This document shows, piece after piece, positions 3,225 through 56,193 of a stretch of DNA of 64,000 nucleotides. Made by a program: the position numbers and the translations under genes. The first letter of the stretch is position 1. Every line of letters begins with the position of its first letter. The notes under the pieces are model-generated. The model was not told the DNA's origin, ran no database searches, and saw only the letters and a list, made by a program, of their open reading frames with translations. Source of the stretch: Minisyncoccota bacterium (lineage in GTDB: Bacteria; Patescibacteriota; Minisyncoccia; JBAYJV01); NCBI GenBank assembly GCA_041664925.1, contig JBAYJV010000001.1, positions 125,845 to 189,844 on the forward strand. The letters run 5' to 3'.

Positions 3225-3268
3225 GTTATCTGTGTAAATCTGTTTATAAATCTGCGCAAATCTGTGGT

Positions 3269-4606
3269 TTATCTAATCCCCATTGAAGAAATTCCTGTTC
3301 CAAACAAGGTTGCCAATACTACAACCATTATAATTCCTAAAATCAATAAACTTACAATTGTCACGACAAAAACCCAAACCCCTTTTGCTACGCCATGTTT
3401 AATTCCAAAGTAAATCGAAGGACCGAAAACAAGCGCTAGGATGATAATTCCCTCCAATAGAACAAAGAGAAGAACCACAAGGGTGTTATATTGATAACTA
3501 ATATTGCTCTGAATAACCTGAATTAATAATGATCCTAGTATTCCCACTACAATAGTACTAAGGGCCGCACCAACACCACTCATAATTATTTTTAATGGCA
3601 AAAGATGGTTTTTGTTAGTTTTTGATATTTTCTCTGCTCTTTTTTTGGCTCGCTTGATTAAAAACCACACCAAGAAACTAACACTTGCTAAGAAGATTAA
3701 AATTCCCAAAATCCAACCAATAATTGCCCATTTATGAAGAGCGAAACGGCTCTCTGCGTATTTTCCTTCAACAGTAAAACTTTCCCAAGGATCAAGCCCT
3801 GAAGTTGTTTTTACATAACCTGAAGCATAAGTGATTTGATTAGAGAAAGTAGTTAGCGCTTGATTGGCTACACCTGCCGCTTCTGGAGCCATTGACTTGA
3901 AAGCGGTGTCATAAGTTGAACGATATTGGGTTTGCGCTTGACCGCCGTCTAGATAAAGTCCCTCCTGAACATCAACGGCTACCCGAACTTGATCTATGTC
4001 GTAAGAGGCCTTAATTGTTTCAAATTTAAAATTAAAAACACCAGCCGATTTCTTGGCATAATTGGGTACTTTATAATAGAGCAAAATCCCAGCTTGCCCT
4101 TGTTCATCAATTGGTTTTTTAAGTTCTATCGTGTACTTAACTGAATTTGAAAGTTCTTCTACTTGAGGCTCGAGAGTATAATAGAGCGGATCCCAGGTTT
4201 TTACCTGCCATCGCCAGTCGGAACATTTTTGTTCATATTTGAGACACCCACCGCTACTCATTTCTGTACAAACATTCGGTTCATATTGATAACAATACTG
4301 TTCTTTTTGATAAAACTCTTCTACGATTTTGATTAATCTAATATCAACTCCCGGGACTTCGACAACTGTTGAATTAATTTGATCTTGACCACTATTTTGT
4401 AAAAGAAGTTTTGCTGCCACAGTCGCTTCGCCCTCGCCATCAAAAACAACAGAATAATATTGGTTTTGACCAAAAATTGTACCATCAGTACTGGGCATAA
4501 TGTCTGGTACAGCCACACTATTAGTTACTTGCGCAGCGCCAACACTAGCGCCAAATCCAAAAATCGTAACCAAGCATATTGCCAAGAATAAAAATTTTTT
4601 TCTCAT
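3269..4606 (-). CDS. membrane protein of unknown function (signal peptide, ~300-aa extracytoplasmic domain, multi-pass C-terminal TM region)
   Basis: 445 aa. The N-terminus MRKKFLFLAICLVTIFGFGASVGAA is a signal peptide. The C-terminal 150 aa consists of hydrophobic helices. Confidence 0.5.
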   Translation of the reverse strand: MRKKFLFLAICLVTIFGFGASVGAAQVTNSVAVPDIMPSTDGTIFGQNQYYSVVFDGEGEATVAAKLLLQNSGQDQINSTVVEVPGVDIRLIKIVEEFYQKEQYCYQYEPNVCTEMSSGGCLKYEQKCSDWRWQVKTWDPLYYTLEPQVEELSNSVKYTIELKKPIDEQGQAGILLYYKVPNYAKKSAGVFNFKFETIKASYDIDQVRVAVDVQEGLYLDGGQAQTQYRSTYDTAFKSMAPEAAGVANQALTTFSNQITYASGYVKTTSGLDPWESFTVEGKYAESRFALHKWAIIGWILGILIFLASVSFLVWFLIKRAKKRAEKISKTNKNHLLPLKIIMSGVGAALSTIVVGILGSLLIQVIQSNISYQYNTLVVLLFVLLEGIIILALVFGPSIYFGIKHGVAKGVWVFVVTIVSLLILGIIMVVVLATLFGTGISSMGIR

Positions 4607-8889: not shown

Positions 8890-8917
8890 TTGACAAACTT
8901 TATGTATATGCTATAAT
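8890..8917 (+). promoter_or_regulatory. consensus sigma70 promoter (TTGACA, 16-nt spacer, TGcTATAAT) driving small RNA 2
   Basis: Sequence ACTTGACAAACTTTATGTATATGCTATAATG. It differs at 2 of 31 positions from the promoter at 6872..6899. Confidence 0.7.
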
Positions 8918-8923
8918 GGTAGT

Positions 8924-9112
8924 ATTGTCACATAGCTCAAGATATAGCAGAGCGGCGGCCCAAAAACCGTGTCAGACCGATGGGGCATAGGGGCAGTGCT
9001 GGCAAGCACATAGGCCCTCAAAACCTAGGTCGCGAGATAATGCATCTCGTTGTGTGAGTCGAAACTCACTGTGGCAGCACAGCCGTATGGTTCGCCCAGC
9101 GGCTTTTTTTTA
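8924..9112 (+). ncRNA. candidate structured RNA (~190 nt), family unassigned
   Basis: The segment is GC-rich (>50% against a ~33% background) and has no ORF. It has multiple perfect hairpins (GCGAGAT, aatgc, ATCTCGt; GTGAGT, cgaaa, ACTCAC; CTGTG, gcag, CACAG). It is followed by GGC plus T8 at 9101..9112. It contains AUAGGGGCAG, reminiscent of the RNase P P4-P5 junction, but it is far too short for a bacterial RNase P RNA. Confidence 0.45.
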
Positions 9113-9222: not shown

Positions 9223-9420
9223 ATGTCTCTATTAGATGAGTATCGTAATTGTTCTACCAATCCCCCGACCGATGTTGCGAAAAGGATTTTGTTTGATGTT
9301 ATCGACGATATTACTAGTCGAAGCGGATGGGATTGGGACGACGATCCAGTAGTTGATGACGAAACGAAAGAGGAAATCCTAGAAACAAATCTAGAAAAAA
9401 TCCAACGCCATCTGCAGTAA
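9223..9420 (+). CDS. small highly acidic protein (65 aa), hypothetical
   Basis: Strong RBS AAAGGAGG 7 nt upstream. About 17 D/E against 7 K/R/H, with a DDDPVVDDETKEE stretch. Its GC content is clearly above the local background. Confidence 0.5.
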   Translation: MSLLDEYRNCSTNPPTDVAKRILFDVIDDITSRSGWDWDDDPVVDDETKEEILETNLEKIQRHLQ

Positions 9421-9453
9421 GAATAAATTAGGGTCAATGAAAGGAGGACAGTT

Positions 9454-9663
9454 ATGGATGATACTTGGAGTGTTAAGTGTCAAAGTTGTGGCGTTGAGTA
9501 CAAGGTAGAAGCATCTGGAGAACAAGAAGCTATCAAAGCTGCTAGGAAAGAACACGAACGAGTGAATGCAGAAGCGACGGCTTTTCGGTGCGATCTTGGT
9601 CCCTTCATGACTCACGCGTTCAATCTCACTCACCCTGATCATCCATGCGCTCCGAAAGAATAG
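9454..9663 (+). CDS. small Cys-containing (zinc-ribbon-like CxxC) protein, hypothetical
   Basis: 69 aa. RBS AAAGGAGG upstream. CQSC...C...HPDHPC. It is GC-rich like its neighbour. Confidence 0.5.
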   Translation: MDDTWSVKCQSCGVEYKVEASGEQEAIKAARKEHERVNAEATAFRCDLGPFMTHAFNLTHPDHPCAPKE

Positions 9664-9698
9664 TGAACCAATATCGCTACTCATCAAGTTCGCCTCGA

Positions 9699-9732
9699 GT
9701 CCCATTCAGCGTGTCTGTTTGGGACTTTTTTT
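9699..9732. terminator. bidirectional intrinsic terminator
   Basis: GTCCCA, loop TTCAGCGTGTCTGTT, TGGGAC then T7. It lies between 9454..9663(+) and 9731..10180(-). Confidence 0.65.
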
Positions 9733-13709: not shown

Positions 13710-13745
13710 TTCAAAGAAAAAACCCCGCTACTCTGCGTAGCGGGG
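13710..13745 (-). terminator. intrinsic terminator downstream of 13752..14972
   Basis: On the minus strand, CCCCGCTAC, loop GCAGA, GTAGCGGGG followed by TTTTTTCTTT. Confidence 0.7.
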
Positions 13746-13751
13746 ATGATC

Positions 13752-14972
13752 TCAAGAAACTATTTCTTTGGTCCTGAGATGCGCTTCTTGGACGATTTCG
13801 GAATGCCATCTAGTGTGGTCATCTCCAACCGTTCCAAGTTTTCCAGCCTTCGCCATCTCTAGAAGATTGTGGAATTCATCCATTCTCCTTTTAGTATCTG
13901 GCTGAATCACGATATGATTGGTGACTTGATTGCTCCCGGGCGATTCAAGGACGCTAAAGTCCATTCTTTGAACCGTCTGGGCAGAGAATGTGTCAGAAAC
14001 AACGAAAGGCAAAGCGTCTACTGGATCAGAGCAATATCCCAGTGCTTCTGCAATTTCTTTGTAGATAGTATCGATAATTCTTGTCTGCTCAGGATCTCTC
14101 CCATGCCATTTCAAACTATCACGCTCATCAATTGTTGCAACTGGAGCATCCATTGCCATCAGGTGTAATCCCTCTTTGATATCATTAAAATGAGCAAATC
14201 GAATTCCAGACTTCTCGGCCAACCTGAGGATCTTTTGGAATTCAACCCACTTATCTAGTTGAGGAACACCATTAACGTGATTGATTAGTGGCACTTCAAG
14301 ATCTGTGAAGAATATCACGAGATTGTGCTTACTTGCAGCCAAACACCTTCTCATTTCATAGACAAAGTCTTGAGGCGTGGTTTCGTTCCGGTGCATTCTA
14401 AGATAAACAGATCTCATCTCAGAGGCCTCAGCGACAAAAACCGGAACGCCATTACATAAAATGATTTCGTCTTTGAGTGGTTTTCTCGTGTCTTGATCTT
14501 CTGGCCAATATTCATAGCTGCAGTTGAGGTCTTTGAGACTTAGAATTCCTCCCTCAGAGCCAACTGTAGCCAAGAAATCGGTAATTCCAAGAGAACTTAC
14601 ATCCATCTCCGGCCAGCAGTGAACCCAGCTTAACTTCTTTCGTGGAATGTATTTTGCTAAAACCTTAAGAGTGATTTCGATTTGAGCTCTTCTTAGTTGC
14701 GGAAAAGAACTTGCCAGCATATGAGTTTGAAAACCCGGCGTTACGCTAATCAAAGGATTTCTGTCAATCTCAGTTAGTGATTTTCTGTCAGCAATATCCA
14801 AGAACAGAACATCTTCGCCCTGATAAGAGAGTTCTGTTGGAACCTGAATGCTGGATAGAAGTTGTCTATACCAACCCTGAGATAATGCTTGACGCATAGA
14901 GCCGAAAGGCCACTCAGAATGACGGAAATTTCCATGAAGAACCATTACTACGGTCGGCTGTACAAACCTCAT
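13752..14972 (-). CDS. hypothetical (beta/alpha)7-barrel carbohydrate-active enzyme, tentatively GH57-like / polysaccharide-deacetylase-like
   Basis: 406 aa. N-terminal VVMVLHGNFRHSEW loosely resembles the GH57 LHxHxPyvRH start. It is markedly GC-richer (~45%) than its neighbours. The assignment is weak. Confidence 0.3.
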   Translation of the reverse strand: MRFVQPTVVMVLHGNFRHSEWPFGSMRQALSQGWYRQLLSSIQVPTELSYQGEDVLFLDIADRKSLTEIDRNPLISVTPGFQTHMLASSFPQLRRAQIEITLKVLAKYIPRKKLSWVHCWPEMDVSSLGITDFLATVGSEGGILSLKDLNCSYEYWPEDQDTRKPLKDEIILCNGVPVFVAEASEMRSVYLRMHRNETTPQDFVYEMRRCLAASKHNLVIFFTDLEVPLINHVNGVPQLDKWVEFQKILRLAEKSGIRFAHFNDIKEGLHLMAMDAPVATIDERDSLKWHGRDPEQTRIIDTIYKEIAEALGYCSDPVDALPFVVSDTFSAQTVQRMDFSVLESPGSNQVTNHIVIQPDTKRRMDEFHNLLEMAKAGKLGTVGDDHTRWHSEIVQEAHLRTKEIVS

Positions 14973-15075
14973 GTATCCTCCTTATTTTTTGTTAAAGTAC
15001 GATTTCATTGCTCATTATAATACTTATTTATCAAATTGTCAATAGTTTTAATTGAAAAGGACCTTTTTTAATCTT

Positions 15076-15107
15076 ATATAAAAAAAGCCTGCTATTGCTA
15101 ACAGGCT
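15076..15107 (-). terminator. intrinsic terminator overlapping the 3' end of 15098..15658
   Basis: AGCCTG, loop CTATTGCTAA, CAGGCT with a T-run on the minus strand. The stop codon lies in the loop. Confidence 0.5.
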
Positions 15108-15658
15108 TTTAGGTGTCTGTATTCAGAAAAAATTCTCGTATAAATGAATTTTTTAACTGGCGGGAAAAGACCAAGAAAGAACAAAAGCCAAGATATGGTC
15201 TCGTGCACAACATCTTGTTTATCCAGATAAGCAGAAGTTTTCTCTACAAAATCAATATCTCTCATCCAATAATTAAACAATTTTAGTATCTTTACGACTA
15301 AACAAATTCGCTTTATGTGCCCAAGATTGCTTACAAGAAAAATCCTTTTCCATTTTCTTTTTTGAATAATATCAGCGGCATCAGTGAAATTTGTCCATGT
15401 ATCATAAGATCCATCGGCTACATAGATGAGTTTCTCAGGAACACCATGTTCCGCTAACCAATCTTTCATATCGTGAGCAATAACTCTGTCCTTAGACGGA
15501 TGGTGAACTCCTCCAGTTACAAGAATAGATCTGCTCTTGTCTTCTTGCCAAACTTCAAGTCCTCTCTCAAGCCTAGAAACTAGATCTTGAGAAAGTTCTC
15601 CTATCCTTTTGTCATACGCTTCAGCAAAAATCATTACAGCTTCATCAACGAGACTCAT
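15098..15658 (-). CDS. DUF218 (YdcF/SanA/ElyC-like) domain protein
   Basis: 186 aa with ILVTGG, GVP and DT motifs characteristic of DUF218. Confidence 0.55.
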   Translation of the reverse strand: MSLVDEAVMIFAEAYDKRIGELSQDLVSRLERGLEVWQEDKSRSILVTGGVHHPSKDRVIAHDMKDWLAEHGVPEKLIYVADGSYDTWTNFTDAADIIQKRKWKRIFLVSNLGHIKRICLVVKILKLFNYWMRDIDFVEKTSAYLDKQDVVHETISWLLFFLGLFPPVKKFIYTRIFSEYRHLKAC

Positions 15659-15663
15659 TCCCC

Positions 15664-15723
15664 TCCTTTTTTTCTTTTTAAAGAACCGCCGTTATCCTAT
15701 CAAAATTACTAATAAAAGTCAAT
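15664..15723 (-). promoter_or_regulatory. duplicated promoter/5'UTR module, copy 1 (upstream of the DUF218 gene)
   Basis: As read on the plus strand, a ~48-nt near-identical block (TCCTTTTTTTCTTTTTAAAGAACCGCCGTTATCCTATCAAAATTA) is shared with 19047..19107. On the minus strand it contains TTGACT, a 17-nt spacer, TAGGAT, the sequence AACGGCGGTTCTTTAAAAAG, an AAGGAGG RBS, then ATG. Confidence 0.6.
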
Positions 15724-15835
15724 ACATTCTACTTAAAAATAACTAGAAAATTTGACTTTTTTAAAATATTGTATTAGGATGATTTTTGGCAAATGGATTG
15801 CCAAAAGTACCTTAAAAAATCAGCTAGGAGGAGAA

Positions 15836-16564
15836 ATGGAAAAGGGTAAGTTTATTAGAGGAGTCGCATTTGATCTTGAAGGAACAGTTGTCAACTTAGA
15901 GCCAATTCATCATCAATCCCACATTCTTTCAGCTCAAGATGTTGGATTGCGTCTAACGCTAGATGACTGTTTTGAAAGGCTTCCTCACTTTATTGGCGGG
16001 CCAGATGAAAAGGTCGCAGAAGAAATTGCTCACGAAGTTGGCGCCACCAATCCTGATGTTGCATCTCGAATTCTTGAAAGCAAAAGAGCCCATTATGAAA
16101 GACTATTTAGAGATTTTTCTTTTACTACTCGACCAGGATTCTTTGAAATTTTTGGATGGTTAAGAGCGCATAATCTTGGAGTTGCAATCGGCACGGCTAC
16201 GCCTTTTTCAAGGATTCGACCCATTCTTGATCGATCAGGATTATCCATGTTATTTACAAAAAAAGAAATTATCACAGAGATTGATGTTAAGCATAATAAA
16301 CCTGCTCCAGATATTTTTCTTGAAACAGCGAAAAGAATGGGGGTAAATCCAGATCAACAACTGGTTTTTGAGGATTCCCCGCGCGGAGTTATGGCAGGCA
16401 TAGCGGCTGGATCTCTTGTTGTTGGAATGCCTATTTATAAGAAAGCTTCGGTGCTTCAGGCGTTGCTAGAAGCAGGAGTATCAAGAATCTTTATGGAATG
16501 GAACGAAATAGAAATCGCCGCCCTGATAATCAATTTAAGCTCTGAGCCTCAAAGAACACAATGA
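15836..16564 (+). CDS. HAD-superfamily hydrolase (HAD-IA, beta-phosphoglucomutase/phosphatase-like)
   Basis: Motif I FDLEGT, motif III KPAPDIF and motif IV FEDSPRGVMAG are present. The start was moved to the ATG with the AGGAGG RBS, which is codon 29 of the listed ORF. Confidence 0.65.
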   Translation: MEKGKFIRGVAFDLEGTVVNLEPIHHQSHILSAQDVGLRLTLDDCFERLPHFIGGPDEKVAEEIAHEVGATNPDVASRILESKRAHYERLFRDFSFTTRPGFFEIFGWLRAHNLGVAIGTATPFSRIRPILDRSGLSMLFTKKEIITEIDVKHNKPAPDIFLETAKRMGVNPDQQLVFEDSPRGVMAGIAAGSLVVGMPIYKKASVLQALLEAGVSRIFMEWNEIEIAALIINLSSEPQRTQ

Positions 16565-17433
16565 TGATGCTAGGACAGAAGCGAATACTAAGTGAAAATT
16601 CCAAAGGATCGTTGCTGATTATTGCAGCAATGGCAATCTTCAGTCTCTATGGTGTTTTTGTAAGATCGATAAAAGCGTCACCAGAAATCATTCTTTTCTT
16701 TAACGCTCTGATAGTCGCTCTTATTTTCCGCTTCATTTTCTTTAAAAATAGAGAGAACTTCAACATCAAAAAACACTGGTTAATGATTCTTGCCCTAGGA
16801 GCGGTTTTTGTGGGCAATAACTTTTTCTTCTTTACCGCCTTCAAATTTACCACGATGTCTAATGCTATTCTAGCGCATTATACTGCTCCGATTTTTGTTG
16901 CAGTCTTAGCTCCTTTCTTACTCAAAGAAAGAATGGAAAAAAATAGCTGGATAGCGCTATTTCTCTCCTTTATTGGCCTTATTATTCTTGGCATTAAAGG
17001 ATTAGCACTAAGCCATAATGATCTTCTGGGCATTCTTTTCGGAACTGGTTCCGGATTGATGTATGGATTATCAATCATTGTCTATAAATATCTGCTTAGA
17101 GATCTGTCTGTGTTGACGCTCATTTTCTATCAATCATTGTTGGGTTCTTTAATTCTAGCGCCATTCATTGCGCCGCAAATCACGCTATCCCTTCCTTTTC
17201 TTTGGTTCGTTGCCTTTGCTCTGCTTTTCGGAATCATAGCAACTTTCCTTCACTTCCAAGGCATGAAAAGAGTCAAGGCACAACATGCAGGTATAATTGG
17301 TTATTCAGAACCCTTGTTCGGGACAATCTATGGTTTCTTGTTTTTTGCTGAAAAACCAACTATCGCAACTGCAATTGGCGGAGGGTTAATTGTTCTTGGG
17401 GGATTCATAATCCTCAGAAATCAAAATCATTAA
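16561..17433 (+). CDS. EamA/DMT-family transporter (10 TM)
   Basis: 290 aa, duplicated 5-TM EamA-like hydrophobic pattern. ATGA overlap with the HAD gene. Confidence 0.65.
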   Translation: MMMLGQKRILSENSKGSLLIIAAMAIFSLYGVFVRSIKASPEIILFFNALIVALIFRFIFFKNRENFNIKKHWLMILALGAVFVGNNFFFFTAFKFTTMSNAILAHYTAPIFVAVLAPFLLKERMEKNSWIALFLSFIGLIILGIKGLALSHNDLLGILFGTGSGLMYGLSIIVYKYLLRDLSVLTLIFYQSLLGSLILAPFIAPQITLSLPFLWFVAFALLFGIIATFLHFQGMKRVKAQHAGIIGYSEPLFGTIYGFLFFAEKPTIATAIGGGLIVLGGFIILRNQNH

Positions 17434-17451
17434 AGAATATTTACAAAAGAA

Positions 17452-17490
17452 AAAGGCCTGTCGTATGAAACGATAGGCCTGTTTTTTTAT
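17452..17490. terminator. bidirectional intrinsic terminator
   Basis: GGCCTGTCG, loop TATGAAA, CGATAGGCC then TGTTTTTTT. It lies between convergent genes. Confidence 0.55.
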
Positions 17491-18086
17491 ATCTCTCCGA
17501 GAATTTTATTAATATCAAGCGAAGGAAATCGCCTGACAAGATGAGGCAGAGCAAGAAAAGTCGCTTCTCTTGACGGTCCTTCTTTGATTGTATTAAACAC
17601 CCTTCGAATCCATTCCTCCAATGGCACCAATTCAACTCGAATTACTTCATTCTTGTCGAAAGAGCCATCTTGCCACTGCTTACACCCAAGGGCTAGAAAA
17701 AGACTGCAACGAGTTTGAGAATTGCGGACTGAGAGAGGTAAGATGCCAAGAGCAATAACTTCTTGTGCATCATATCCGCCCTCTTCTCGAAGTTCTCTTC
17801 TGGCAACCTCTTCAGGAGATTCTCCTCCATCTACATCGTCATTCCCCCCTGTCAATACTTGTAAGGTTTCGTCTACTCCCTGGTAATACTGCCAGGTAGT
17901 CACTACCATACCGTCCTCTGTGACAGCCATGGTTACTGACCAGTTCTGTTGGTCATAAAAAATCCAAGTTTCGACCTTTTCGGTAATCGGATGTATTAAT
18001 ACAACCCTAGACAACCTCTTGCCACGAGAAATCGCTAGTATGGTTTCGCTCGATACTGAATCTCTCACGTAAAGTTTTCCTGACAT
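17487..18086 (-). CDS. NUDIX hydrolase
   Basis: Nudix box GGESPEEVARRELREEGG. The start was placed at an internal Met (MSGKLYV), so it abuts the upstream IMPase gene end. Confidence 0.7.
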   Translation of the reverse strand: MSGKLYVRDSVSSETILAISRGKRLSRVVLIHPITEKVETWIFYDQQNWSVTMAVTEDGMVVTTWQYYQGVDETLQVLTGGNDDVDGGESPEEVARRELREEGGYDAQEVIALGILPLSVRNSQTRCSLFLALGCKQWQDGSFDKNEVIRVELVPLEEWIRRVFNTIKEGPSREATFLALPHLVRRFPSLDINKILGEI

Positions 18087-19039
18087 TATTCCACGCTCCT
18101 TCCGTAGTCTTCCACCAACCACTTAGTTAGTTCTTCAACTAATCTTGGATTTCCGGCGATAAAACCAGTTGTTTTGTGTCCGGGATTATAATGCCTAACT
18201 TCTGGCTTATCGAGCAAATTGATTTTCCCACCAACAATTTCATAGAGCTGGACTTTACCACCAGCTTCCTCAACCAGAGGATAGCCAGCAGCCCAATCCC
18301 ATGGCATCTGCGGTGCTTGAACAAAAGCGTCAACTCTTCCGCTAGCAACAAGCGCCAAGCCAAGAGCACAAGATCCCATACTATTAGCCGTCCGCGATTT
18401 GCTAGCTGCTTTGTTTAATAACCTACTAAAAACAGCGATCCTTGGAATGTCAATGCCGTAAGCAATTACACTTTCTTCGATTGCTTTGTCGGAAGCCACA
18501 CAAGCCCTTCTAGTTTCTCTAGGATTTCCTAGAGCTACATAAACACCTTTGCCGCGCCTGCCAAAAACAAGTAATCCGCCTTTTATTTCAGGAGCATAAA
18601 TCACGCCTAACTGATGAACGCCATGCTCCATGGTGCCGATTGAAACCGAATATTCGTAGAGATCTCTGGCATATTGGGCAGTTCCATCGAGAGGATCAAC
18701 ACAAAAAACCAGTTCAATATCTAAGATGCTTGCATAGTTCTCAGGCGTTAAAACTTGTTTATCGGCATCACTCTCTTCTGTTTTTTCTTCGACTAAGAAA
18801 AATGCTTGAGGAAAACTCAATCTTTCCAAAATTAAATCCTGAGATCTAAGATCGGCATTTGTAACCAGATTATGAATCGAACCGCCTGCCTTACGCTGAC
18901 TTTCTCTGACAAAATTCGGATCAATAATTGCGTGAGCAGCGTCTAGCCCAGCTTTCACCATGTGATAGAGAAACCCATCTTCAATCTGAACAAGTTGCAG
19001 ACTCAAATCTTCAGTCCTTAATTGATTTCTTTCTGCCAT
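18086..19039 (-). CDS. inositol monophosphatase family protein (IMPase/CysQ/SuhB-like)
   Basis: 317 aa with VDPLDGT and WDWAAG motifs. Confidence 0.75.
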   Translation of the reverse strand: MAERNQLRTEDLSLQLVQIEDGFLYHMVKAGLDAAHAIIDPNFVRESQRKAGGSIHNLVTNADLRSQDLILERLSFPQAFFLVEEKTEESDADKQVLTPENYASILDIELVFCVDPLDGTAQYARDLYEYSVSIGTMEHGVHQLGVIYAPEIKGGLLVFGRRGKGVYVALGNPRETRRACVASDKAIEESVIAYGIDIPRIAVFSRLLNKAASKSRTANSMGSCALGLALVASGRVDAFVQAPQMPWDWAAGYPLVEEAGGKVQLYEIVGGKINLLDKPEVRHYNPGHKTTGFIAGNPRLVEELTKWLVEDYGRSVE

Positions 19040-19046
19040 TTTTTCT

Positions 19047-19107
19047 CTCCTTTTTTCTTTTTAAAGAACCGCCGTTATCCTATCAAAATTATTTACAAAA
19101 GTCAATG
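19047..19107 (-). promoter_or_regulatory. duplicated promoter/5'UTR module, copy 2 (upstream of the IMPase gene)
   Basis: Near-identical to 15664..15723. It is followed by an RBS and the ATG at 19039. Confidence 0.6.
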
Positions 19108-19159
19108 ATTGGAATAAAAAAATGACTGGCATGAGTCAATCATTTTTTGTTATTTTTCC

Positions 19160-19206
19160 TCGAGATTCTTCCCCTGTACCATACGGCACAGGATCAGAAT
19201 GACATG
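19160..19206 (-). other. conserved stem-loop element, copy Y (in the 3'UTR of hpf)
   Basis: The minus-strand reading is UGUCAUUCUGAUCCUGUGCC, loop GUAU, GGUACAGGGGAAGAAUCUCGAGG. Flanks are identical to element X at 57516..57560. The stem differs but pairing is preserved (8 bp with one G.U). Confidence 0.5.
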
Positions 19207-19265
19207 CTGCAGAGCCGAATAATCCTGCAACTTTTCACTTTAAACTTTAAATTTTTAATTTACTC

Positions 19266-19676: not shown

Positions 19677-19841
19677 AAATTTAAAAACAAAATACAAATA
19701 CTTATTTTTAAATAAATTCGAAACACGAAACTCGAAATCCTAAACAATGCCTAAATTCAAACATTTTAAATTCAAAACGGTTTAATATTTTGGATTTAGA
19801 TATTTAAATTTGTTTCGAATTTCGAAATTCAATATTCGGAT

Positions 19842-49076: not shown

Positions 49077-50420
49077 TTATGAAGTCAGGTCTGTTCCGGT
49101 AGTATAGGCATCTCTATCAACTTGATTAATGATATAAATTGCATCCCAGTCATACTTTGAAGAGAAAACGCTTGCTGACATATTCATCCAGCGCTTAGCG
49201 CCGGTATCGCCATCCGGATAAAGCCTATAAACCTTAGGATCGTTAACTTTTTTGGCAACATCATTGCATCTTACCAAATCAGAAATGGTATAAGTGAGCA
49301 TTTCTGCATTGGTAATAATTTTTAAATTACTCCATTTGAGATGCTGATAGCTATCAAAGACATGAGGACTCAAAACCAACCTTCGATATTTCTTACTATT
49401 GATTAATTTCACAATATAAACATCGAATTTTTCCATACCGGGAGCATTCGATGCTCTGACAATATCGCCGTCAACAAGATGACTGTCAGGTGTGGTAGTG
49501 TCGGGAGTACTCGATCCGGTAGCACCACCAATGATTGAGAAATATGTGAAGTGAGTCGTTGTTGCAGTAATGGTATTGGTAACCTTATCAATCGTACATG
49601 AAAGTGCTATCCATTTTGAAGTAGCTGTGTCCCAGTAATATATTTTTAAGCTATTTTCATCAAGCCCTTGAATTTGGGCATCTGTATAGGTCATCGTGAT
49701 TGTTACTGCCTTGGTAAATGTCGTTAAGTTTGTTGAGCCAACTGTTGCAGTGTAATTATATAAATTACCAACAATTGTTTGTCCCGTGCCTATGCCAGCA
49801 ACCATACCTGACACAGCGCTTGATGTTTGAGCAACGGATTCAATGGCAACGGCCGTAGATGCCGTGAGAGTGTCTTTTTCTATCTTTACAGTCGCTTTAG
49901 TGCCATTGCTACCAGTCAAAGAAGTCTCTCCGCCTAATGAAGCTGTGGCAATCACCGAACCATTGGTCGTTGAAGGCATCGCTTGGGCAGGAACTCCGCC
50001 ACCACCACCACCGCTACTACTGCTAGTGCTAATTGTGTAAGCAGCAGAAGCAGTTGAAGATTGTCTATTATTAGAGTAACAAGATATCGCTGTAATTGTT
50101 TGACTAGAAGAAACTGAAATAGCTGAAGCGTAAAGAGTACCTGTGGTACAGGTAGTCCCCAAGGCGCTACAGACTGGTGTAGTGCCGTTAGCAGTATAGC
50201 AAATACCTGTTGTTCCTGCTGCAGTTAGAGTAACGCTTTGAGTTGATGTATAAGTACCAGCTGCAGGAGAAATCGTAGGAGCTGCTATTAATGTTCCGCT
50301 TATACCAGTTTCAAGTGTAGGTGATAAAGTACCTGATGCTTCAGACGCACTAACAACATCAATAACCAAAAAAGACGTCAAAAGCATCAAGCCAAAAACA
50401 TATAAAACTTTTTTTACCAT
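49077..50420 (-). CDS. secreted Thr/Ser-rich surface protein with C-terminal anchor-like module
   Basis: 447 aa with a signal peptide and poly-Gly/Ser/Thr low-complexity stretches. The C-terminal ~125 aa (HLVDGDIVRASN...VYIVKL...RCNDVAKKVNDPKVYRLY...KRWM) are homologous to the modules in 19842..21596 and 59256..62507. Confidence 0.55.
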   Translation of the reverse strand: MVKKVLYVFGLMLLTSFLVIDVVSASEASGTLSPTLETGISGTLIAAPTISPAAGTYTSTQSVTLTAAGTTGICYTANGTTPVCSALGTTCTTGTLYASAISVSSSQTITAISCYSNNRQSSTASAAYTISTSSSSGGGGGGVPAQAMPSTTNGSVIATASLGGETSLTGSNGTKATVKIEKDTLTASTAVAIESVAQTSSAVSGMVAGIGTGQTIVGNLYNYTATVGSTNLTTFTKAVTITMTYTDAQIQGLDENSLKIYYWDTATSKWIALSCTIDKVTNTITATTTHFTYFSIIGGATGSSTPDTTTPDSHLVDGDIVRASNAPGMEKFDVYIVKLINSKKYRRLVLSPHVFDSYQHLKWSNLKIITNAEMLTYTISDLVRCNDVAKKVNDPKVYRLYPDGDTGAKRWMNMSASVFSSKYDWDAIYIINQVDRDAYTTGTDLTS

Positions 50421-50496
50421 AATATTTATTTAAGCAAATTGATTATTTTGAGTGAGAGAGGGTAGGAAACCTACCCCCTCCCTGAAATCTTTTTGA

Positions 50497-53400
50497 TTAT
50501 GATGATTGAATGCCGTAACTGGTAGAATAAGATCCACTCGATGAACCCGTCGGCACTTTCGCTTCAACCGTCACCTGAATTTGTCTACCAATTGTTGAGG
50601 CATCGGTGTCGCCAGTTAATGTCATGCCACTACTAAGAGTGCTAGCTGCTGTAATACCAATCGCACTGCCAGTTGTGCTTGCATTTGATGATTGAGCCGA
50701 ATAGAAACGCATATTATCAGTCACGGCAATCGTATTGCTTCCGCTCGTCCAATTATCAAACTTCATTTTGAAGGTCGTTTCTGAGGTCGGTACCGTGATA
50801 TTGAATGTCCATGACCAACCATCGGTTGTTGAAGCAACGCCATCTGGCCATCCACCAGCAACAGCGGCATAAGATTCCTTAGTGGTAATACTCGTTACAG
50901 CTAACGATCCATCGCCTTGAGCGACTGTCGTAAATTCTTGATCTGCCTTTGTTGTGTAGGCTGTCATAGCGTTTCCTGCGGCATCTTTGGCGCCGGAAAC
51001 CCAGATATAATACTGCGTGCTGTTATCCAAGCTCGCAACAGGATCAATCGTAGCAATATAAGTACCGGAGACATAAGTGACTACTGAATTAACTACTGCA
51101 TCCGTAGATGAGGCTCTCAATTGAACCGTGTTTGTATTGATGGTATCGGAATCCATTGCTTCAGAGAAGGTAACGGTTGGTGAAACTGTAATAGCAGTAC
51201 CTGTTGCATTATCTAACGGTGTTTGTGATAACACGCTTGGAGCGCTATCTGCTATGGTCGTAAATTCTTGATCTGCCTTTGTTGTGTAGGCTGTCATAGC
51301 GTTTCCTGCAGCATCTTTAGCGCCTGAAACCCAGATATAATACTGAGTACTATTGCTCAAGCTAGCAACTGGATCAATGGTAGCAACATAAGTACTGACA
51401 TTGTAAGTAACCACTGAATTAATTATCGCATCCGTAGATGAGGCTCTTAATTGAACAGTGTTTGTATTTACGGTTGACGAATCCATCGCTTCAGAGAAGG
51501 TAACGGTCGGAGAGACTGTAATGGCGGTACCTGTTGCATTATCTAGCGGTGTTTGTGATGATACACTTGGAGCGCTAGATGAAACCGTAATGCCTGTCTG
51601 AGACCCTGTAATGGTCGGACTGGCATTATCTGTTCCCGTTACGCTGACTCCTCCTTCAGCAGTTGTGAATTTAATCATGTCGTTAAAGAGATAGCTTCCA
51701 TTGTCACCTGCTATGAAGGTGTGTCTGCCATTACTTTGCCAGATCGGTCCAGTTGATGACGCGTCCATCCAGACAGAACCAGTATAAGCAGTATCAATAT
51801 TACTGTTAGCATCAACAGAAGCTACTGTTACATCAACAGGAGTATTGGCTGCTGGAGTGGTTGTGCAACTAACCGACAATACAGAAACTATAAAGTTTAT
51901 AGCAAGAGTCGTATCGGCCGTTGAAGTTGTTAAGGTTGAACCAACACCTGTATCAGAAGCGGTTAAGCTTAATGTGTCTTCATCGGGAGTAGTTGCCGTC
52001 AAGTTGGCTGCTGGAATTTGGACTGTCGTTAATGCCTTAGTTCCAGCCACTAAAGTACTGGTACTAGAAGTAAGAGTTAGTGAATCGCCTGTTGAGTCAG
52101 CAATAGCGATAGAGATAGTACTGACATCATCAGGATCGGTGTTGCTGTGAACATCTTTTGCTGTGACTGTTACTGAGATATTATCAGCAAATCTGACATT
52201 TGGGGAAGCTGCCGCCGAAGAAACATCAGACACCACTAATTTTGTCGCAACCACATCCAATGGGGTTGTTGTTGTGACGGCTGACATGTTACCGGCAGTA
52301 CCTAAAGCCCCATCGTCGTCGAAAGACAGGGTGATTGATGCGTCGTCAGTAAAGGTGCCATCAACGCTCGCTTTAAGCCCTGAGAAAGTGGCAATACCCA
52401 AAGTCATCGTGCTAGTTGTATTACCAACTAATGAAGTATTAGCAGTTGTTGAGGTAGCGGTAATTGTTTCTGAGCTGATACCAGTATCGGTGTTGCTGTG
52501 AGCATCGTAGGCTTTAATGACTGGCTGAGTAGTCAAGTTAACCAAGTCAACTGCGCCGCTTGGACTAGTAGTGATTGCTAGTTGAGTAGCAACTACATCC
52601 AAGGAGGTAGTTGAAGTAACAGCTGCCATATTAACGCCACCAATATCTCCGTCATCATTGAAGGATAAATTCATCGAAGCGCCATCAGTAAATGTCCCAT
52701 CAACATTAGCTTTGAGTCCTGAGAAGGTAGCAATACCTGAAGCCATGACCGCTGTCGTTGTGCCCGATACTGAAACGTTTGACGTGTCTGTAGTAGCGGT
52801 AATTGTTTCTGTGCTAACACCAGTATCGGTATTATTGTGAGCATCGTAGGCCTTAATGACTGGCTGAGTAGTTAATGCTACGGTATCAACCGCTCCACTT
52901 GGAGCAGTAGTTATTGCTAATTTTGTTGCAACTACCCCCAAAGAGGTGGTCGCGGTAACAGGTGTCATATCAACACCGCCAATACCTCCGTCATCATTGA
53001 AGGAGAAAGTGATGGTAGAACCATCAGTAAATGTTCCATCCACACTCGCTTGAAGTCCAGAGAAAGTGGCAATACCTGAAGCCATAGTGCTAGTCGTATT
53101 GCCAACGGCTGAAATATCTGTAGTTGTAATTGAGGCTGTAATGACTTCTCCCGTAACACCGGCATCGGTGTTGTCGTGAGCATCGTAGGCCTTAATGACT
53201 GGTTGACCTGTTAAGTTTACTAAATCTTCCGCACCACTTGGAGCAGTAGTTATTGATAATTTTGTCGCAACTACACCCAAGGAGGTGGTCGCGGTAACAG
53301 GTGTCATATCAACACCGCCAATGCCTCCGTCATCATTGAAGGATAAAGTAATTTCAGATCCGTCGGTAAAAGTACCATCTATACTTGCTTGGAGTCCTTC

Positions 53401-56193
53401 AAAGGTAGCAATACCTGAAGCCATAGTACCAGTCGTATTACCGACTAATGAAACATTAGAAGTTGTTGAAGTAGCTGTAATGACTTCTCCGTTAACGCCG
53501 GCATCGGTATTATTGTGGGCATCATAGGCTTTAACAACTGGTTGAGTTGTCAAGTTGACCAAATCAACGGCACCACTCGGACTGGTAGTTAAAACTAATT
53601 GAGTCGCAACTACGCCCAGTGAAGTTGTTGCGGTTGTTGTTGCCATATCAACGCCACCAATAGCTCCGTCATCGTTAAAGGAGAGTGTAATCGTAGCGCC
53701 ATCAGTAAAGGTGCCATCAACATTAGCTATAAGTCCTGAAAAAGTGGCAATACCTGAAGTCATGGTTGCTGTTGTTGTGCCCGAGACTGAAACGTTAGAT
53801 GTATCCGTGGTGGCCGTAATAACTTCCGCAGTAGCACCTGTATCAAGTGTACCATTAGCATCTTGAGCTTGAATGGCTGGTTGGGTTGTCAAGGCTACCG
53901 CATCAACTGCACCAGCTGGCGGAGTAGTGACAACTAATTGAGTTGCCTTAACGTCTGCAGTCGTAGTAGCACTTACCGCTGGAGTAGCGCTAAGATTTAC
54001 TAATCCTGAGCCTGCCACATCATCAGTAAAGATAAGTTGAACATCTTCAGCATCAGCAAAAGCCGTATAGATCATACTAGTAAAGGTAGCAATACCGTTT
54101 GAGGCCGTAGTCGTTGAACCAGCGGTAATACTACCAGCAGCATTGTCTGTCGCTGTTAAAACATCAGAATCAATATGGGTATCAATTTTTCCCTGAGCAT
54201 TAGTATAGTGAACCACCGGTACAGTCATTGATACGCCACTAATAATATTTGAAGGTTCGGTATTGACCGTAAGACCGGTCGCCAGAACATCGGCGGTTGT
54301 AGTCGCAGCATTAACTGGGGAGCCACTAAAGTCCACAGCACCACCACCCGCTGCATTGTCGGTAAAGACGAAAGTGACATTTTCCTCATCAGCAGCTGCG
54401 AAATACAGCAATCCAGCAAAATCAACTTCACCAGCTGCAGCAGAAACAGTTGTTGTGCCTGTTAAACTACCAGCTGATCCCTCTGTAATTGCAACCGTGT
54501 CAGAAGTTGTAATTGCAGTATCCACTTTATTGTCCGCATCTACATATTTAATAACCGGTTGAACCATGGAAACACCGCTAATGATACTTGCCGGTTGAGT
54601 AGTAACAAGAAGTTTGGTGGCGACCACATCAGCAGTTGTAGAGGCAGAAGTTACGGGAGTGCTTATATTAACACCACCGATTGAATCATCGGTAAAGGTG
54701 AATTGAACTGCTTCTTGATCGGCATTAACCGTATATTTCATGCCCGTGAATGTGGCAACACCGCTTGAAACAGTAGTTGTTGAGACAGCAGTAATGCTGC
54801 CAGCGGCATTATCAGTCGCCGTTAGAATGTCAGCGGTAATATCAGTATCAGTTGCATTATTAAGGTCAACATAGCGGACTATGGGTACCGTCATTGAGAC
54901 ACCGCTAATAATAGTTGAAGGCTGAGTATTAATCGCAAGAGCGGTTGCCACGACATTAGCTGTTGTGGTGGCCGCATTGACTGGAGAACCATCGAAAGCT
55001 TTAGCACCACCAGCATTATCGGTAAAGGTAAAGGTTACACTCTCCTGATCAAGAGCCGCCGTATAAATCAATCCCGAGAAGGTAGCGACACCAGATGTAG
55101 CAGAAGTTGTTGTAGCGCCCGCCGTTAATGATCCTGCTGATCCTTCTGTAATAGTAACTGTATCGCCAGTTGTAATGGCAGTATCTACTGTACCGATAGC
55201 ATCTACATATTTAACAACCGGTTGAACCATGGAGACGCCACTAACAATAGTTGCTGGTTGAGTAGTGACAAGAATCCTGGTTGCTACAACATCTGAGGTT
55301 ACGCTATTTGAATGGACATGTAAGGTGTCGCCGGTAGCAGTGGTTATGAAAGATTCTCCGTCGACAACAGCCGTATATTTAATACCAGAAAAAGTAGCCA
55401 CACCACTAACTGAAGTGGTTGCCAGAGTTCCACTAAGATCACCTGCGCCATCTTCTGTTAGAGTAATTGTCTCTGCAAAATTAGTATCGGTATTACCATA
55501 AGTATCTCTCGCAGTAACTTCTGGTTGTGTCAAAGAAACGCCACTGACAGAGCTAGCCGGCTGAGTTGTAAAAACAAGTTGCGTAGCTGTGCCAGGGGTA
55601 AGAGTAACTGCCGCAACATTGGTTTGAGCTGTTTCATCGGTTGCATTTGTGTCAATCGTAAGAGTTCCTGTGGCTCCAGAGGTAGTTGCATTTTGAATAC
55701 CTACTAAAAATCTAAAAGTTGTCGTGCCCGCGCTTAAATCATAAGCATTTAACAGTGTCACGGTAACCGTTCTAGCTGAAGCACTACCGACAACATTATC
55801 AACCGCCCGGTTTACGCCATTAACACTGACCATACCAGTAACAACACTACCGCTTCCATTGTTATTATTAATAGCAGAGCCAACGCTTCCTAAGTCGCCA
55901 TCAGTAATAACATAACCAGTCGGAAAAGTGACTGTAATGGTATTAGCAGTATTAGTCGTATTGGTAAGAAAAGTTGTGTTGTAATCAGCGCCAGTAGCGC
56001 CAACTACTAAGTCAGCTGCTGCGTTTCCCGCAACAACTCCAGAAGAAACTGTTGCCCCGACTGGTAACGGATTTGCCAATAAAAAAATCCCCCCTACAAG
56101 GAGAAACATTATGGTAAATAGCGCCGAGGTCTTTCTTGTATTTTGAGTTCGCATAATTGTTTTTGATAGAAAATTAATTATTTTAGTAAACAT
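50497..56193 (-). CDS. giant surface protein (1898 aa) with N-terminal signal/anchor, more than 10 tandem Ig-like (~105-113 aa) repeats and two C-terminal Big_5/SbsA-type Ig domains
   Basis: Thr/Ser/Ala/Val-rich. Repeats include VVATKLVVTTQPASIISGVSMVQPVIKYVDA.... The two C-terminal copies PSVSSQTPLDNATGTAITVSPTVTFSEAMDS...YYIWVSGAKDAAGNAM have the Big_5 pattern. DNA-level tandem repeats are evident. Confidence 0.7.
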   Translation of the reverse strand: MFTKIINFLSKTIMRTQNTRKTSALFTIMFLLVGGIFLLANPLPVGATVSSGVVAGNAAADLVVGATGADYNTTFLTNTTNTANTITVTFPTGYVITDGDLGSVGSAINNNNGSGSVVTGMVSVNGVNRAVDNVVGSASARTVTVTLLNAYDLSAGTTTFRFLVGIQNATTSGATGTLTIDTNATDETAQTNVAAVTLTPGTATQLVFTTQPASSVSGVSLTQPEVTARDTYGNTDTNFAETITLTEDGAGDLSGTLATTSVSGVATFSGIKYTAVVDGESFITTATGDTLHVHSNSVTSDVVATRILVTTQPATIVSGVSMVQPVVKYVDAIGTVDTAITTGDTVTITEGSAGSLTAGATTTSATSGVATFSGLIYTAALDQESVTFTFTDNAGGAKAFDGSPVNAATTTANVVATALAINTQPSTIISGVSMTVPIVRYVDLNNATDTDITADILTATDNAAGSITAVSTTTVSSGVATFTGMKYTVNADQEAVQFTFTDDSIGGVNISTPVTSASTTADVVATKLLVTTQPASIISGVSMVQPVIKYVDADNKVDTAITTSDTVAITEGSAGSLTGTTTVSAAAGEVDFAGLLYFAAADEENVTFVFTDNAAGGGAVDFSGSPVNAATTTADVLATGLTVNTEPSNIISGVSMTVPVVHYTNAQGKIDTHIDSDVLTATDNAAGSITAGSTTTASNGIATFTSMIYTAFADAEDVQLIFTDDVAGSGLVNLSATPAVSATTTADVKATQLVVTTPPAGAVDAVALTTQPAIQAQDANGTLDTGATAEVITATTDTSNVSVSGTTTATMTSGIATFSGLIANVDGTFTDGATITLSFNDDGAIGGVDMATTTATTSLGVVATQLVLTTSPSGAVDLVNLTTQPVVKAYDAHNNTDAGVNGEVITATSTTSNVSLVGNTTGTMASGIATFEGLQASIDGTFTDGSEITLSFNDDGGIGGVDMTPVTATTSLGVVATKLSITTAPSGAEDLVNLTGQPVIKAYDAHDNTDAGVTGEVITASITTTDISAVGNTTSTMASGIATFSGLQASVDGTFTDGSTITFSFNDDGGIGGVDMTPVTATTSLGVVATKLAITTAPSGAVDTVALTTQPVIKAYDAHNNTDTGVSTETITATTDTSNVSVSGTTTAVMASGIATFSGLKANVDGTFTDGASMNLSFNDDGDIGGVNMAAVTSTTSLDVVATQLAITTSPSGAVDLVNLTTQPVIKAYDAHSNTDTGISSETITATSTTANTSLVGNTTSTMTLGIATFSGLKASVDGTFTDDASITLSFDDDGALGTAGNMSAVTTTTPLDVVATKLVVSDVSSAAASPNVRFADNISVTVTAKDVHSNTDPDDVSTISIAIADSTGDSLTLTSSTSTLVAGTKALTTVQIPAANLTATTPDEDTLSLTASDTGVGSTLTTSTADTTLAINFIVSVLSVSCTTTPAANTPVDVTVASVDANSNIDTAYTGSVWMDASSTGPIWQSNGRHTFIAGDNGSYLFNDMIKFTTAEGGVSVTGTDNASPTITGSQTGITVSSSAPSVSSQTPLDNATGTAITVSPTVTFSEAMDSSTVNTNTVQLRASSTDAIINSVVTYNVSTYVATIDPVASLSNSTQYYIWVSGAKDAAGNAMTAYTTKADQEFTTIADSAPSVLSQTPLDNATGTAITVSPTVTFSEAMDSDTINTNTVQLRASSTDAVVNSVVTYVSGTYIATIDPVASLDNSTQYYIWVSGAKDAAGNAMTAYTTKADQEFTTVAQGDGSLAVTSITTKESYAAVAGGWPDGVASTTDGWSWTFNITVPTSETTFKMKFDNWTSGSNTIAVTDNMRFYSAQSSNASTTGSAIGITAASTLSSGMTLTGDTDASTIGRQIQVTVEAKVPTGSSSGSYSTSYGIQSS
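50927..51590 (-). repeat. two ~330-bp near-identical tandem DNA repeats (Big_5 domain units) inside the giant gene
   Basis: GTCGTAAATTCTTGATCTGCCTTTGTTGTGTAGGCTGTCATAGCGTTTCCTGC recurs with a 330-bp period at about 90% identity. Confidence 0.7.
52300..53900 (-). repeat. array of ~340-bp tandem DNA repeats (Ig-like units) inside the giant gene
   Basis: GCATCGTAGGC(T/C)TTAATGACTGG recurs at about 52503, 52841, 53183 and 53521. Confidence 0.65.

Follow-up and report, generated by a model that had tools for sequence, protein, structure and literature searches.

Twin promoter-leader cassettes before non-homologous genes of a Patescibacteria locus, probably kept identical by gene conversion

Concerted evolution in bacteria is best described for the ribosomal RNA (rRNA) operons and the duplicated tuf genes, whose copies are direct repeats within reach of RecA-type recombination and display identity within a genome, divergence between genomes and derived changes common to both copies; conversion between the rrn operons of Escherichia coli has been measured (PMC8022953). 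In these cases the unit is a whole paralogous gene or operon. Here we describe a unit that behaves alike in a 64,000-nucleotide stretch of a Minisyncoccota bacterium (GenBank assembly GCA_041664925.1, contig JBAYJV010000001.1, positions 125,845 to 189,844; hereafter the window), although it comprises only about 56–64 nt of promoter and leader and the genes behind its two copies are not homologous to each other. One copy of this module precedes a DUF218 gene, while the other precedes an operon encoding an inositol monophosphatase (IMPase)-family phosphatase and a NUDIX hydrolase.

Other described systems resemble the module in part. Promoters of the extended −10 sigma-70 class (TGnTATAAT) have the same architecture, with TTGACT, a 17-bp spacing, TG at −15/−14, a TAnnnT hexamer and a start, predicted in the module, about 7–8 nt downstream; the module is unlike the class in its −10, TAGGAT, which matches at four of six positions. 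In shared-operator regulons such as those of the LexA, Pho and NrdR boxes, the same sequence stands upstream of functionally linked units, as it does here. Start-site control by nucleotide pools is known from the E. coli rrn P1 promoters, with their GC-rich discriminator, and from the sensing of initiating GTP at the Bacillus subtilis rrn promoters, while reiterative transcription controls pyrG, pyrBI, codBA and upp. A full-text literature search returned no work on transcription control, promoters or mapped starts in the candidate phyla radiation (CPR) or Patescibacteria; the present locus offers a comparatively supported promoter architecture for these ultra-small uncultivated organisms, including a recurrent TAGGAT variant of the −10.

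A repeat search of the window aligned positions 15668–15723 with 19051–19106, both on the minus strand, as an ungapped repeat of 56 nt with 95% identity, one copy lying 5′ of the IMPase-NUDIX operon (copy A) and the other 5′ of the DUF218 gene (copy B; Table 1). The two copies share an exact block of 41 nt, TAATTTTGATAGGATAACGGCGGTTCTTTAAAAAGAAAAAA, and similarity then runs on to the Shine-Dalgarno sequence (SD) with a 1-nt indel, the distance from the −10 to the ATG being 35 nt at one copy and 37 nt at the other. The 32-mer TTTTGATAGGATAACGGCGGTTCTTTAAAAAG has two exact occurrences in the 64 kb against 0.00 expected in shuffles. An earlier note on this DNA, made from its letters, had described a duplicated block of about 48 nt; the block is real and somewhat larger. 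Two independent Logan assemblies each end exactly 30 nt into the 41-nt exact block, at both copies, which is where an assembler with k=31 would be expected to stop at a true repeat, and the JGI, ENA and NCBI assemblies of relatives run through their own module copies uninterrupted.

Table 1. Coordinates of the features of the locus, as positions of the 64,000-nt window.
Feature	Position	Strand	Remarks
Module copy A	19040..19106	-	Upstream of IMPase-NUDIX
Copy A -35 TTGACT	19105-19100	-	Followed by 17-bp spacer with TG of extended -10
Copy A -10 TAGGAT	19082-19077	-	
Copy A discriminator AACGGCG	19076-19070	-	
Copy A predicted +1 G	19069	-	30-nt leader GUUCUUUAAAAAGAAAAAAGGAGAGAAAAA up to ATG at 19039
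Module copy B	15659..15723	-	Upstream of DUF218
Copy B -35 TTGACT	15722-15717	-	
Copy B -10 TAGGAT	15699-15694	-	
Copy B discriminator AACGGCG	15693-15687	-	
Copy B predicted +1 G	15686	-	28-nt leader, SD AGGAGG, ATG at 15658
Third promoter, for HAD-EamA	15752..15808	+	Divergent from copy B; TTGACTTTT-N14-TAGGAT; shares only the hexamers with the module
hpf terminator	19115..19143	-	Hairpin and T-run directly upstream of copy A; orthologue in L006 keeps the hairpin, several stem bases changed
IMPase-family phosphatase, 317 aa	18086..19039	-	Pfam Inositol_P, E 5.5e-37; NCBIfam matches all below equivalog cut-offs
NUDIX hydrolase, 199 aa	17487..18086	-	Pfam; weak NudE and YffH/AdpP similarity
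Hairpin between convergent NUDIX and EamA genes	17454..17480	.	Probably a bidirectional terminator
EamA/DMT-family transporter, 290 aa	16561..17433	+	Pfam EamA, E 9e-41
HAD-IA phosphatase, beta-phosphoglucomutase family type, 242 aa	15836..16564	+	Pfam, family match
DUF218 (YdcF/ElyC-type), 186 aa	15098..15658	-	Pfam; monocistronic; own terminator 15083-15110
Orphan protein with GH57-like fold, 406 aa	13752..14972	-	Own promoter TTGACA-17-TATAAT 15042-15014; terminator 13723-13745; not under the module

In the JGI metagenomes that hold the species of the close relative L006, a 20-base motif of the module matched only the two copies of L006 and one copy of another lineage, and a search of 185,579 representative genomes, among which the source genome is apparently not included, with the 20-mer AACGGCGGTTCTTTAAAAAG returned only a chance match inside a Clostridia coding region. 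A generic, ubiquitous promoter is thus not supported; the earlier note had named a repeat standing before dozens of unrelated genes as the observation that would undo its claim, and the window holds two copies. The metagenome motif scan yielded 22 contigs, of which three belong to the clade (L018, L023, L032), three are unrelated with promoter context (L033 and L036/L037, the latter two carrying the same sequence) and 16 lack such context, those inspected among the 16 having the motif inside coding regions. Among viral contigs the motif was present in two, which carry one identical sequence without promoter context, and we take this to be a chance match.

Both copies score as sigma-70-type promoters: the −35 is close to TTGACA, the spacer of 17 bp falls within 16–18 bp, and the TAnnnT hexamer TAGGAT is preceded by TGn, the extended −10 TGATAGGAT lying at 15702–15694 and 19085–19077. 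This bears out the previous description of the block as a promoter with −35 TTGACT and −10 TAGGAT, a 5′ untranslated region and a ribosome-binding site. The −10 is followed by a discriminator of 6–7 nt (AACGGCG), an invariant G and then TTCTTTAAAA. In every relative the G lies 7–8 nt past the −10, which would be the canonical start distance, and from this distance together with the conservation of GTTCTT transcription is predicted to start at G19069 and G15686. The leader of 28–30 nt, GUUCUUUAAAAAG...GGAG, is purine- and A-rich except for UUCUUU and terminates at a strong SD. Because the predicted start G lies 7–8 nt after the −10, the segment formerly singled out as GC-rich corresponds to the discriminator plus the start; likewise, AACGGCGGTT, proposed as the site that a repressor might bind, lies between the −10 and the predicted start and is therefore the discriminator. 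As a recognition site it does not hold, since it is the most variable patch in the relatives (ACGGCGG, ACGGCAG, ACGAAGG, ATAGCG, GTAGCG). The Gram-positive LexA half-palindrome resembles the AAC-N4-GTT of the module, yet both a AACGGCGGTT operator and a LexA-like box were rejected, as the patch varies and AAC-N4-GTT is lost in L006, L037 and L049.

Three instances of TTGACT-N17-TAGGAT are present in the window, where 0.01 would be expected, the third being the divergent promoter of the HAD-EamA genes. At the predicted 5′ end of the HAD-EamA leader lies an 11-bp hairpin or palindrome (15782–15808, plus strand) with the core TTTTGGCAA-ATGGA-TTGCCAAAA, which could be a stabilising 5′ stem-loop or an operator; the promoter and the hairpin core are conserved in L006 and L038. 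A fourth TGATAGGAT promoter stands before an epimerase gene (57465–57492). With four occurrences in the window, three at the locus and one before the epimerase gene, TAGGAT appears to be a recurrent −10 variant of this genome rather than a signal private to the locus. Upstream of copy A, the hpf terminator is predicted to insulate the module from hpf read-through.

Four further lineages came from protein look-ups and the metagenome motif scan; all five close lineages, the window included, keep the module before the same genes. Synteny with the window locus is complete in L006/7/8; L009/10 have hpf, module, IMPase and NUDIX followed by a kinase-like gene; in L018 a 175-aa gene is inserted between hpf and the module; and L038 displays HAD, module and DUF218 in that order. 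In the alignment of the five lineages the −35 plus TTTT, the 16-nt TAATTTTGATAGGATA and GTTCTTTAAAA are invariant, while variation falls on five positions of the spacer, on the discriminator and on the A-rich run that precedes the SD. The stretch from SD to ATG tracks the orthologue, reading GGAGAGAAAA(A/G)ATG before IMPase in the window, L006 and L009, and AGGAGGGGAA(AA)TG before DUF218. In contrast, the discriminator tracks the genome: it is AACGGCG twice in the window, whereas in L006 it is AATAGC at one copy and AGTAGC at the other. Both L006 copies thus read A(A/G)TAGC against AACG(G/A)(C/A)(G/A) in the other four lineages (AACGGCG, AACGGCA, AACGAAG), which amounts to three derived changes common to both copies, one of them a deletion, and the L006 copies differ from each other by 1 nt over the promoter and the start of the leader. 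A discriminator that is variable and has changed jointly in both copies indicates that AACGGCGGTT is no conserved recognition site and that the copies are not evolving independently.

A more distant relative, L049 (NCBI contig CAYPPP010000006.1), holds an IMPase homologue of 43% identity. Its SecA is 74% identical to that of the window, its DUF218 41% and its NUDIX protein 48%, and its genes are ordered PKD/LTD protein, 588-aa protein, hpf, DUF218, IMPase, NUDIX and secA; the trio thus occupies the same slot between hpf and secA, in a locus without the EamA, HAD and GH57-like genes. L049 has a 64-nt direct repeat of 94% identity (3243–3306 and 3937–4000), again upstream of DUF218 and of IMPase, and here too DUF218 is trailed by a hairpin and a T-run. 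Resemblance between the L049 module, ATTGACAAAATGCTTATTTTATGTATAATGTAAGTAGTTCTTATTATTGTAAA, and that of the window is limited to ATTGAC, the −10 and GTTCTT, which lies 7 nt past the −10. In both genomes the repeated unit starts 1 nt before the −35 and stops directly ahead of the gene's own SD. The window lineage and L049 have the two units in opposite order, an arrangement compatible with recombination among such repeats. The view that the identical control regions mark genes that belong together, in line with the co-regulation proposed in the earlier note, gains from this comparison, as DUF218, IMPase and NUDIX are adjacent in L049 and have twin promoters as well.

In each genome that shows both copies, these are closer to one another (41 nt exact in the window, 1 nt of difference in L006, 94% identity in L049) than to the copies of other genomes, and in L006 the derived discriminator changes are common to both; this is the pattern of concerted evolution. 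The shared pairing with a different sequence in a distant relative indicates that the copies have been kept identical within each genome over long evolutionary time, and since unconstrained intergenic DNA would be unalignable at the divergence of L049, near-identity within genomes would require repeated homogenisation. We therefore consider it reasonably likely, on comparative sequence evidence, that the locus holds twin promoter-leader cassettes which co-express an old gene trio and are held identical by gene conversion. The block would be an expression cassette complete in itself and found in two copies. Its promoter, of the housekeeping-sigma type, would combine a −35 close to consensus, the optimal spacer length of 17 bp, the extended −10 TG and the weak −10 TAGGAT; a GC-rich 7-nt discriminator, a G start and a short, unstructured, purine-rich leader would come next, the leader ending just ahead of each gene's own SD. 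Copy A would drive the IMPase-NUDIX bicistron and copy B the monocistronic DUF218 gene, and with one cassette per unit both would receive the same transcriptional input. DUF218, IMPase and NUDIX would form an old functional unit of this Paceibacterota lineage, whose cassettes have been homogenised repeatedly, most likely by gene conversion between direct repeats 0.7–3.4 kb apart, while selection would act on the promoter hexamers and on the start-proximal GTTCTT.

Several points weigh against this account. Only three genomes (the window, L006 and L049) show both copies, and an independent re-duplication in each lineage would yield the same pattern as continuing conversion. Conversion alone leaves the retention of GTTCTT unexplained. 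Between the window and L006 the module is about 75–82% conserved, no better than the neighbouring coding DNA at 86–89%, so that constraint has to be argued from the deeper comparisons; other intergenic regions, however, are down to 15–30% between the same two genomes. Copies in the source genome were counted within the 64-kb window of a 433-kb contig, and further ones may lie elsewhere in that genome; the start, co-expression and recombination in these organisms are predictions. Concerted evolution of a promoter only, before non-homologous genes and in two deeply separated lineages, would be unusual, and so is the conserved GTTCTT at the predicted start. The locus would then illustrate clearly, and in nature, how a cassette of promoter sequence alone can stay identical before non-homologous genes across deep divergence, a pattern normally reported for paralogues; in its simple form this would be a small evolutionary curiosity without a new mechanism.

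GTTCTT lies 6–7 nt past the −10 in the window clade and 7 nt past it in L049. In two distant IMPase homologues related hexamers occupy the same place, in TTGACA-17-TATATT-GTTATCA-GTTCTC (L046) and TTGACA-17-TATAAT-ATCGGCA-GTTGTT (L047). Non-redundant loci totalling 127 kb contain 331 sites that loosely resemble promoters; nine of these carry GTT[CG]T[TC] 5–8 nt past the −10, against about 1.7 expected by our own arithmetic from the background frequency, and seven of those nine stand before IMPase or DUF218(-like) genes. From these comparisons we conclude that GTTCTT at the predicted start appears to be under selection, whether as an initial transcribed sequence tuning promoter escape or nucleotide sensing, as a half-operator or as a 5′-terminal RNA signal, all of which are possibilities. 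The motif is short, conserved and directly testable.

The module might carry the site of a dedicated transcription factor, with a core of GTTCTT with or without flanking bases, so that DUF218, IMPase-NUDIX and possibly HAD-EamA would form a small regulon and the copies would be kept identical by selection on the operator and not by conversion. Positions +1 to +6 are a classical place for a repressor, and lineages with proteins only 41–48% identical have GTTCTT or a variant with one mismatch equally far from the −10. The motif scan also found TTGACT-17-TGATAGGATA-N5-GTTCTTTAAA, on an unrelated contig, before a gene whose 244-aa product matches DUF218 below threshold (E 1e-3), and a similar promoter on an unrelated contig before another gene; the promoters of L036/L037 and L033 were retrieved through the motif itself, are not independent tests and carry little weight. 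L049 has six copies of AAGGTTCTT, with a GTTCTT core, in 21-nt phase just upstream of hpf, arranged as three tandem 42-nt repeats (2549–2674) that each contain it twice, whereas the region upstream of hpf in the window (19700–19840) has repeats of the GGATTTCGAGTTTCG type instead. Unlike the boxes of known regulons, GTTCTT is not surrounded by a conserved dyad or direct repeat (the window, L009 and L018 have TTCTTT-AA-AAAGAA, which L006, L038 and L049 lack), and no regulator or DNA-binding domain was found among the Pfam-scanned window genes, which make up about half of the predicted open reading frames (ORFs). Moreover, GGTTCTT shows no enrichment across the window, with 15 occurrences against 10.4 expected, and the identity of the copies extends over spacer positions that an operator at +1 would leave free. 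As a replacement for conversion we regard the operator as possible but rather unlikely; it is compatible with homogenised cassettes as an added layer.

A further-reaching idea, which we hold to be improbable, is that the DUF218 and IMPase(-NUDIX) units of this Patescibacteria branch are obliged to share their promoter-leader and that GTTCTT (5′-GUUCUU) is an undescribed regulatory signal, the candidates being a checkpoint on initiation or escape that senses the G/U/C nucleotide pools and the site of a factor. By pure analogy with start-site control by nucleotide pools, the module has a weak −10, a GC-rich discriminator, a G start, the pyrimidine-rich GUUCUU and genes for nucleotide or sugar-phosphate enzymes. 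It differs from those systems in that only some lineages have a GC-rich discriminator (L006 has AATAGC and L049 GTAAGTA) and in that there is neither a homopolymer of at least three bases right at the start nor a downstream attenuator. If true, this idea would tie the expression of phosphatases for nucleotide-sugars or sugar-phosphates to nucleotide supply in organisms without de novo nucleotide synthesis, and the twin direct repeats would serve as a hinge for recombination, by which the swapped gene order could be explained.

We also weighed whether the locus is a horizontally acquired, GC-rich island that brought its own promoters, as the earlier note had suggested for the 5.4-kb region. The GC content of the region is 0.40 against 0.365 for the window, and within the first 45 kb its tetranucleotide composition deviates to a local extreme; the uniform composition that the earlier note had named as its other refuting observation was not seen, and the rise in GC is modest. 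It is uneven, though: the IMPase (0.431), NUDIX (0.443) and 406-aa (0.430) genes are raised, whereas DUF218 (0.365), EamA (0.383) and HAD (0.397) are near the flanking secA (0.382). GC at third codon positions (GC3) is up in four of the six genes (0.33–0.39 against about 0.27), with DUF218 and HAD at background, and the high values at first and second positions (GC1 and GC2) in IMPase and NUDIX point to amino-acid composition. Of the few IMPase homologues with a taxon name, several of the nearest beyond the clade come from DPANN archaea (Pacearchaeota 48%, Aenigmarchaeota 38%), so that an ancient exchange is possible; the absence of EamA-HAD and the GH57-like gene from L049 means that they were gained in the window lineage or lost in L049. 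Against an island stand the full arrangement in L006/L007/L008, syntenic at about 87% nucleotide identity in L006 and there with the same GC pattern, as well as the DUF218-IMPase-NUDIX core in the slot that it also occupies in L049. Concomitantly, there is no tRNA in the window and no integrase among its Pfam-scanned genes, and the only flanking repeats are the modules themselves. With synteny and composition shared by relatives, recent horizontal transfer is not supported, and we judge the island a distinctly unlikely explanation. The strongest GC outliers of the window lie elsewhere, at 49077–62507, in genes for giant secreted or surface proteins of 447, 1898, 407 and 1083 aa (Big_5, FG-GAP, CHB_HEX_C); in three of the four GC2 is 0.50–0.55 and composition is driven by amino-acid content, while the 407-aa gene differs with a GC3 of 0.485.

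An element acting at the RNA level, with the shared 5′ untranslated region serving as a riboswitch, as an SD-sequestering RNA thermometer or as the common target of a trans-acting small RNA or protein, would agree with the conserved 5′-terminal GUUCUU and with the weak pairing of UUCUUU, the sole pyrimidine tract, to AAAGAA or AAGGAG near the SD. A leader of the predicted 28–30 nt would be too short for an aptamer plus an expression platform. Rfam gave no match at gathering score in the whole window, and even with E<=10 allowed none overlapped a leader. The leaders of L049 and the window clade fold with minimum free energies (MFE) of −0.5 to about −6 kcal/mol, no better than shuffles (z from −1.0 to +1.3 overall; −0.5 to −5.7 kcal/mol and z from −0.5 to +1.3 for the window and L049; −0.26 and +0.57 in the window, +1.2 and +1.3 in L049), and a riboswitch or structured leader was rejected on both grounds, so that this part of the earlier proposal falls. 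In addition, the leader past GTTCTT is not conserved between the window and L049, while the identity of the copies includes the untranscribed promoter. An unrelated contig, L033 (86–176, minus strand), has a TGATAGGATA-N6-GTTCTTTAAA promoter whose equivalent leader folds into a strong SD-sequestering hairpin (−14.1 kcal/mol, z = −3.0), a point in favour of an RNA element. Taken together, we consider such an element very unlikely at this locus.

Finally, a trivial repeat, be it an assembly artefact or a fragment derived from a miniature inverted-repeat transposable element (MITE) or insertion sequence (IS) lying before two genes by accident, is barely credible and was rejected, for although short-read Logan contigs end inside the repeat, long contigs from independent JGI, ENA and NCBI assemblies cross both copies in relatives, the flanks of the copies are unrelated and show no apparent terminal inverted repeats or target-site duplications, and there are just two copies, each at an exact promoter-to-ATG distance.

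Pfam confirmed the previous DUF218, HAD, EamA, NUDIX, IMPase, hpf and secA calls. The start of the NUDIX gene overlaps the stop of the IMPase gene (TAATG), which suggests translational coupling. The GH57-like label given earlier to the 406-aa protein stands for the fold and not for profile membership: Pfam gave no match, and its homologue P0127 reached 18.3 bits against the cut-off of 21.2 for PF03065. The protein is a member of an orphan family in which 17 representatives could be detected, and its model reached a predicted local distance difference test score (pLDDT) of 90.8 from a 16-sequence alignment (34.5 from a 3-sequence alignment). The predicted fold is that of the GH57 catalytic domain, a (beta/alpha)7 barrel plus a helical domain; the top 12 Foldseek matches in the PDB are all GH57 enzymes (E 7e-9 to 2e-6), among them AmyC, GH57 branching enzymes and 4-alpha-glucanotransferase at E ~1e-8 with template-modelling (TM) scores of 0.5–0.58. 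Like GH57 enzymes in fold, with the acidic residues E122, D224 and E226 invariant across its family, it differs from the characterised ones in being shorter and only 10–14% identical. Neither the 406-aa protein nor DUF218 nor the L037 protein had a match in sequence searches of the PDB.

IMPase homologues of 41–44% identity adjoin a gene set resembling that for NDP-heptose, comprising an NTP transferase, a GmhB-like HAD, a SIS-domain protein and a GHMP kinase; in L011–L015, L046–L048 and L050–L051, from DPANN archaea and Patescibacteria, members of this IMPase subfamily stand beside these genes and an epimerase. Given this recurrent heptose-type neighbourhood, the IMPase of the locus, instead of being an inositol monophosphatase, may act as a sugar-bisphosphate phosphatase in a pathway of the nucleotide-heptose type. 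The sugar-phosphate theme raised by the earlier note is plausible, if unproven, in view of the GH57-like fold, the beta-phosphoglucomutase-type HAD, a NUDIX protein with weak resemblance to ADP-sugar hydrolases and these neighbourhoods, and a role of the genes in sugar-phosphate or nucleotide-sugar metabolism is to be read in the same way. DUF218, a family of unknown function, is linked here to the IMPase-NUDIX pair and to sugar or nucleotide-sugar genes, which gives a usable functional lead. Two candidate neighbours were rejected: the 183-aa gene before IMPase in L051 is not a DUF218 gene, and in L039 the GH57-like homologue has a 199-aa neighbour that is not the NUDIX protein, with no module present.

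IMPase and NUDIX (17487–19039) diverge faster than their surroundings, with 67–86% and 60–81% nucleotide identity against L006, L009 and L018, while the flanking hpf, DUF218, HAD, EamA and secA genes remain at 86–90% among the same lineages. This fast, mosaic divergence suggests relaxed or diversifying selection, or recombination. A boundary of cassette replacement at the module was sought in the identity profile between the window and L006, in which IMPase and NUDIX are mosaic without a clean breakpoint. Between the hpf stop and its terminator (19152–19215, minus strand), a conserved element, GTCATTCTGA...hairpin...GAAGAATCTCGAG, is common to the window and L006, whereas L009 and L018 have the plain terminator only.

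Elsewhere in the window, positions 23–49 kb hold a surface-glycan cluster (Wzy, Bac_transf, epimerases). Two small ORFs on the plus strand (9223–9420 and 9454–9663), encoding an acidic protein of 65 aa and a Cys-rich one of 69 aa, lie behind a strong TTGACT-17-TATAAT promoter and a GGAGG SD; the longer minus-strand ORF that overlaps both (9391–9705) has a GC3 of 0.58 and is probably spurious. An ORF-free stretch of about 190 nt and about 55% GC (8924–9112, plus strand) follows a consensus TTGACA-17-TATAAT promoter (~8890–8922) and ends in a hairpin and T-run. It folds with an MFE of −67.8 kcal/mol (z = −2.7), has no Rfam, tRNA or tmRNA match and has the look of a structured small RNA that is missing from the annotation. 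Contig L051, which is Patescibacteria-like but unrelated, conserves the 3′ hairpin (CCGYATGGTTCGCCCAGCGG and T-run) at 2285–2330 on the minus strand.

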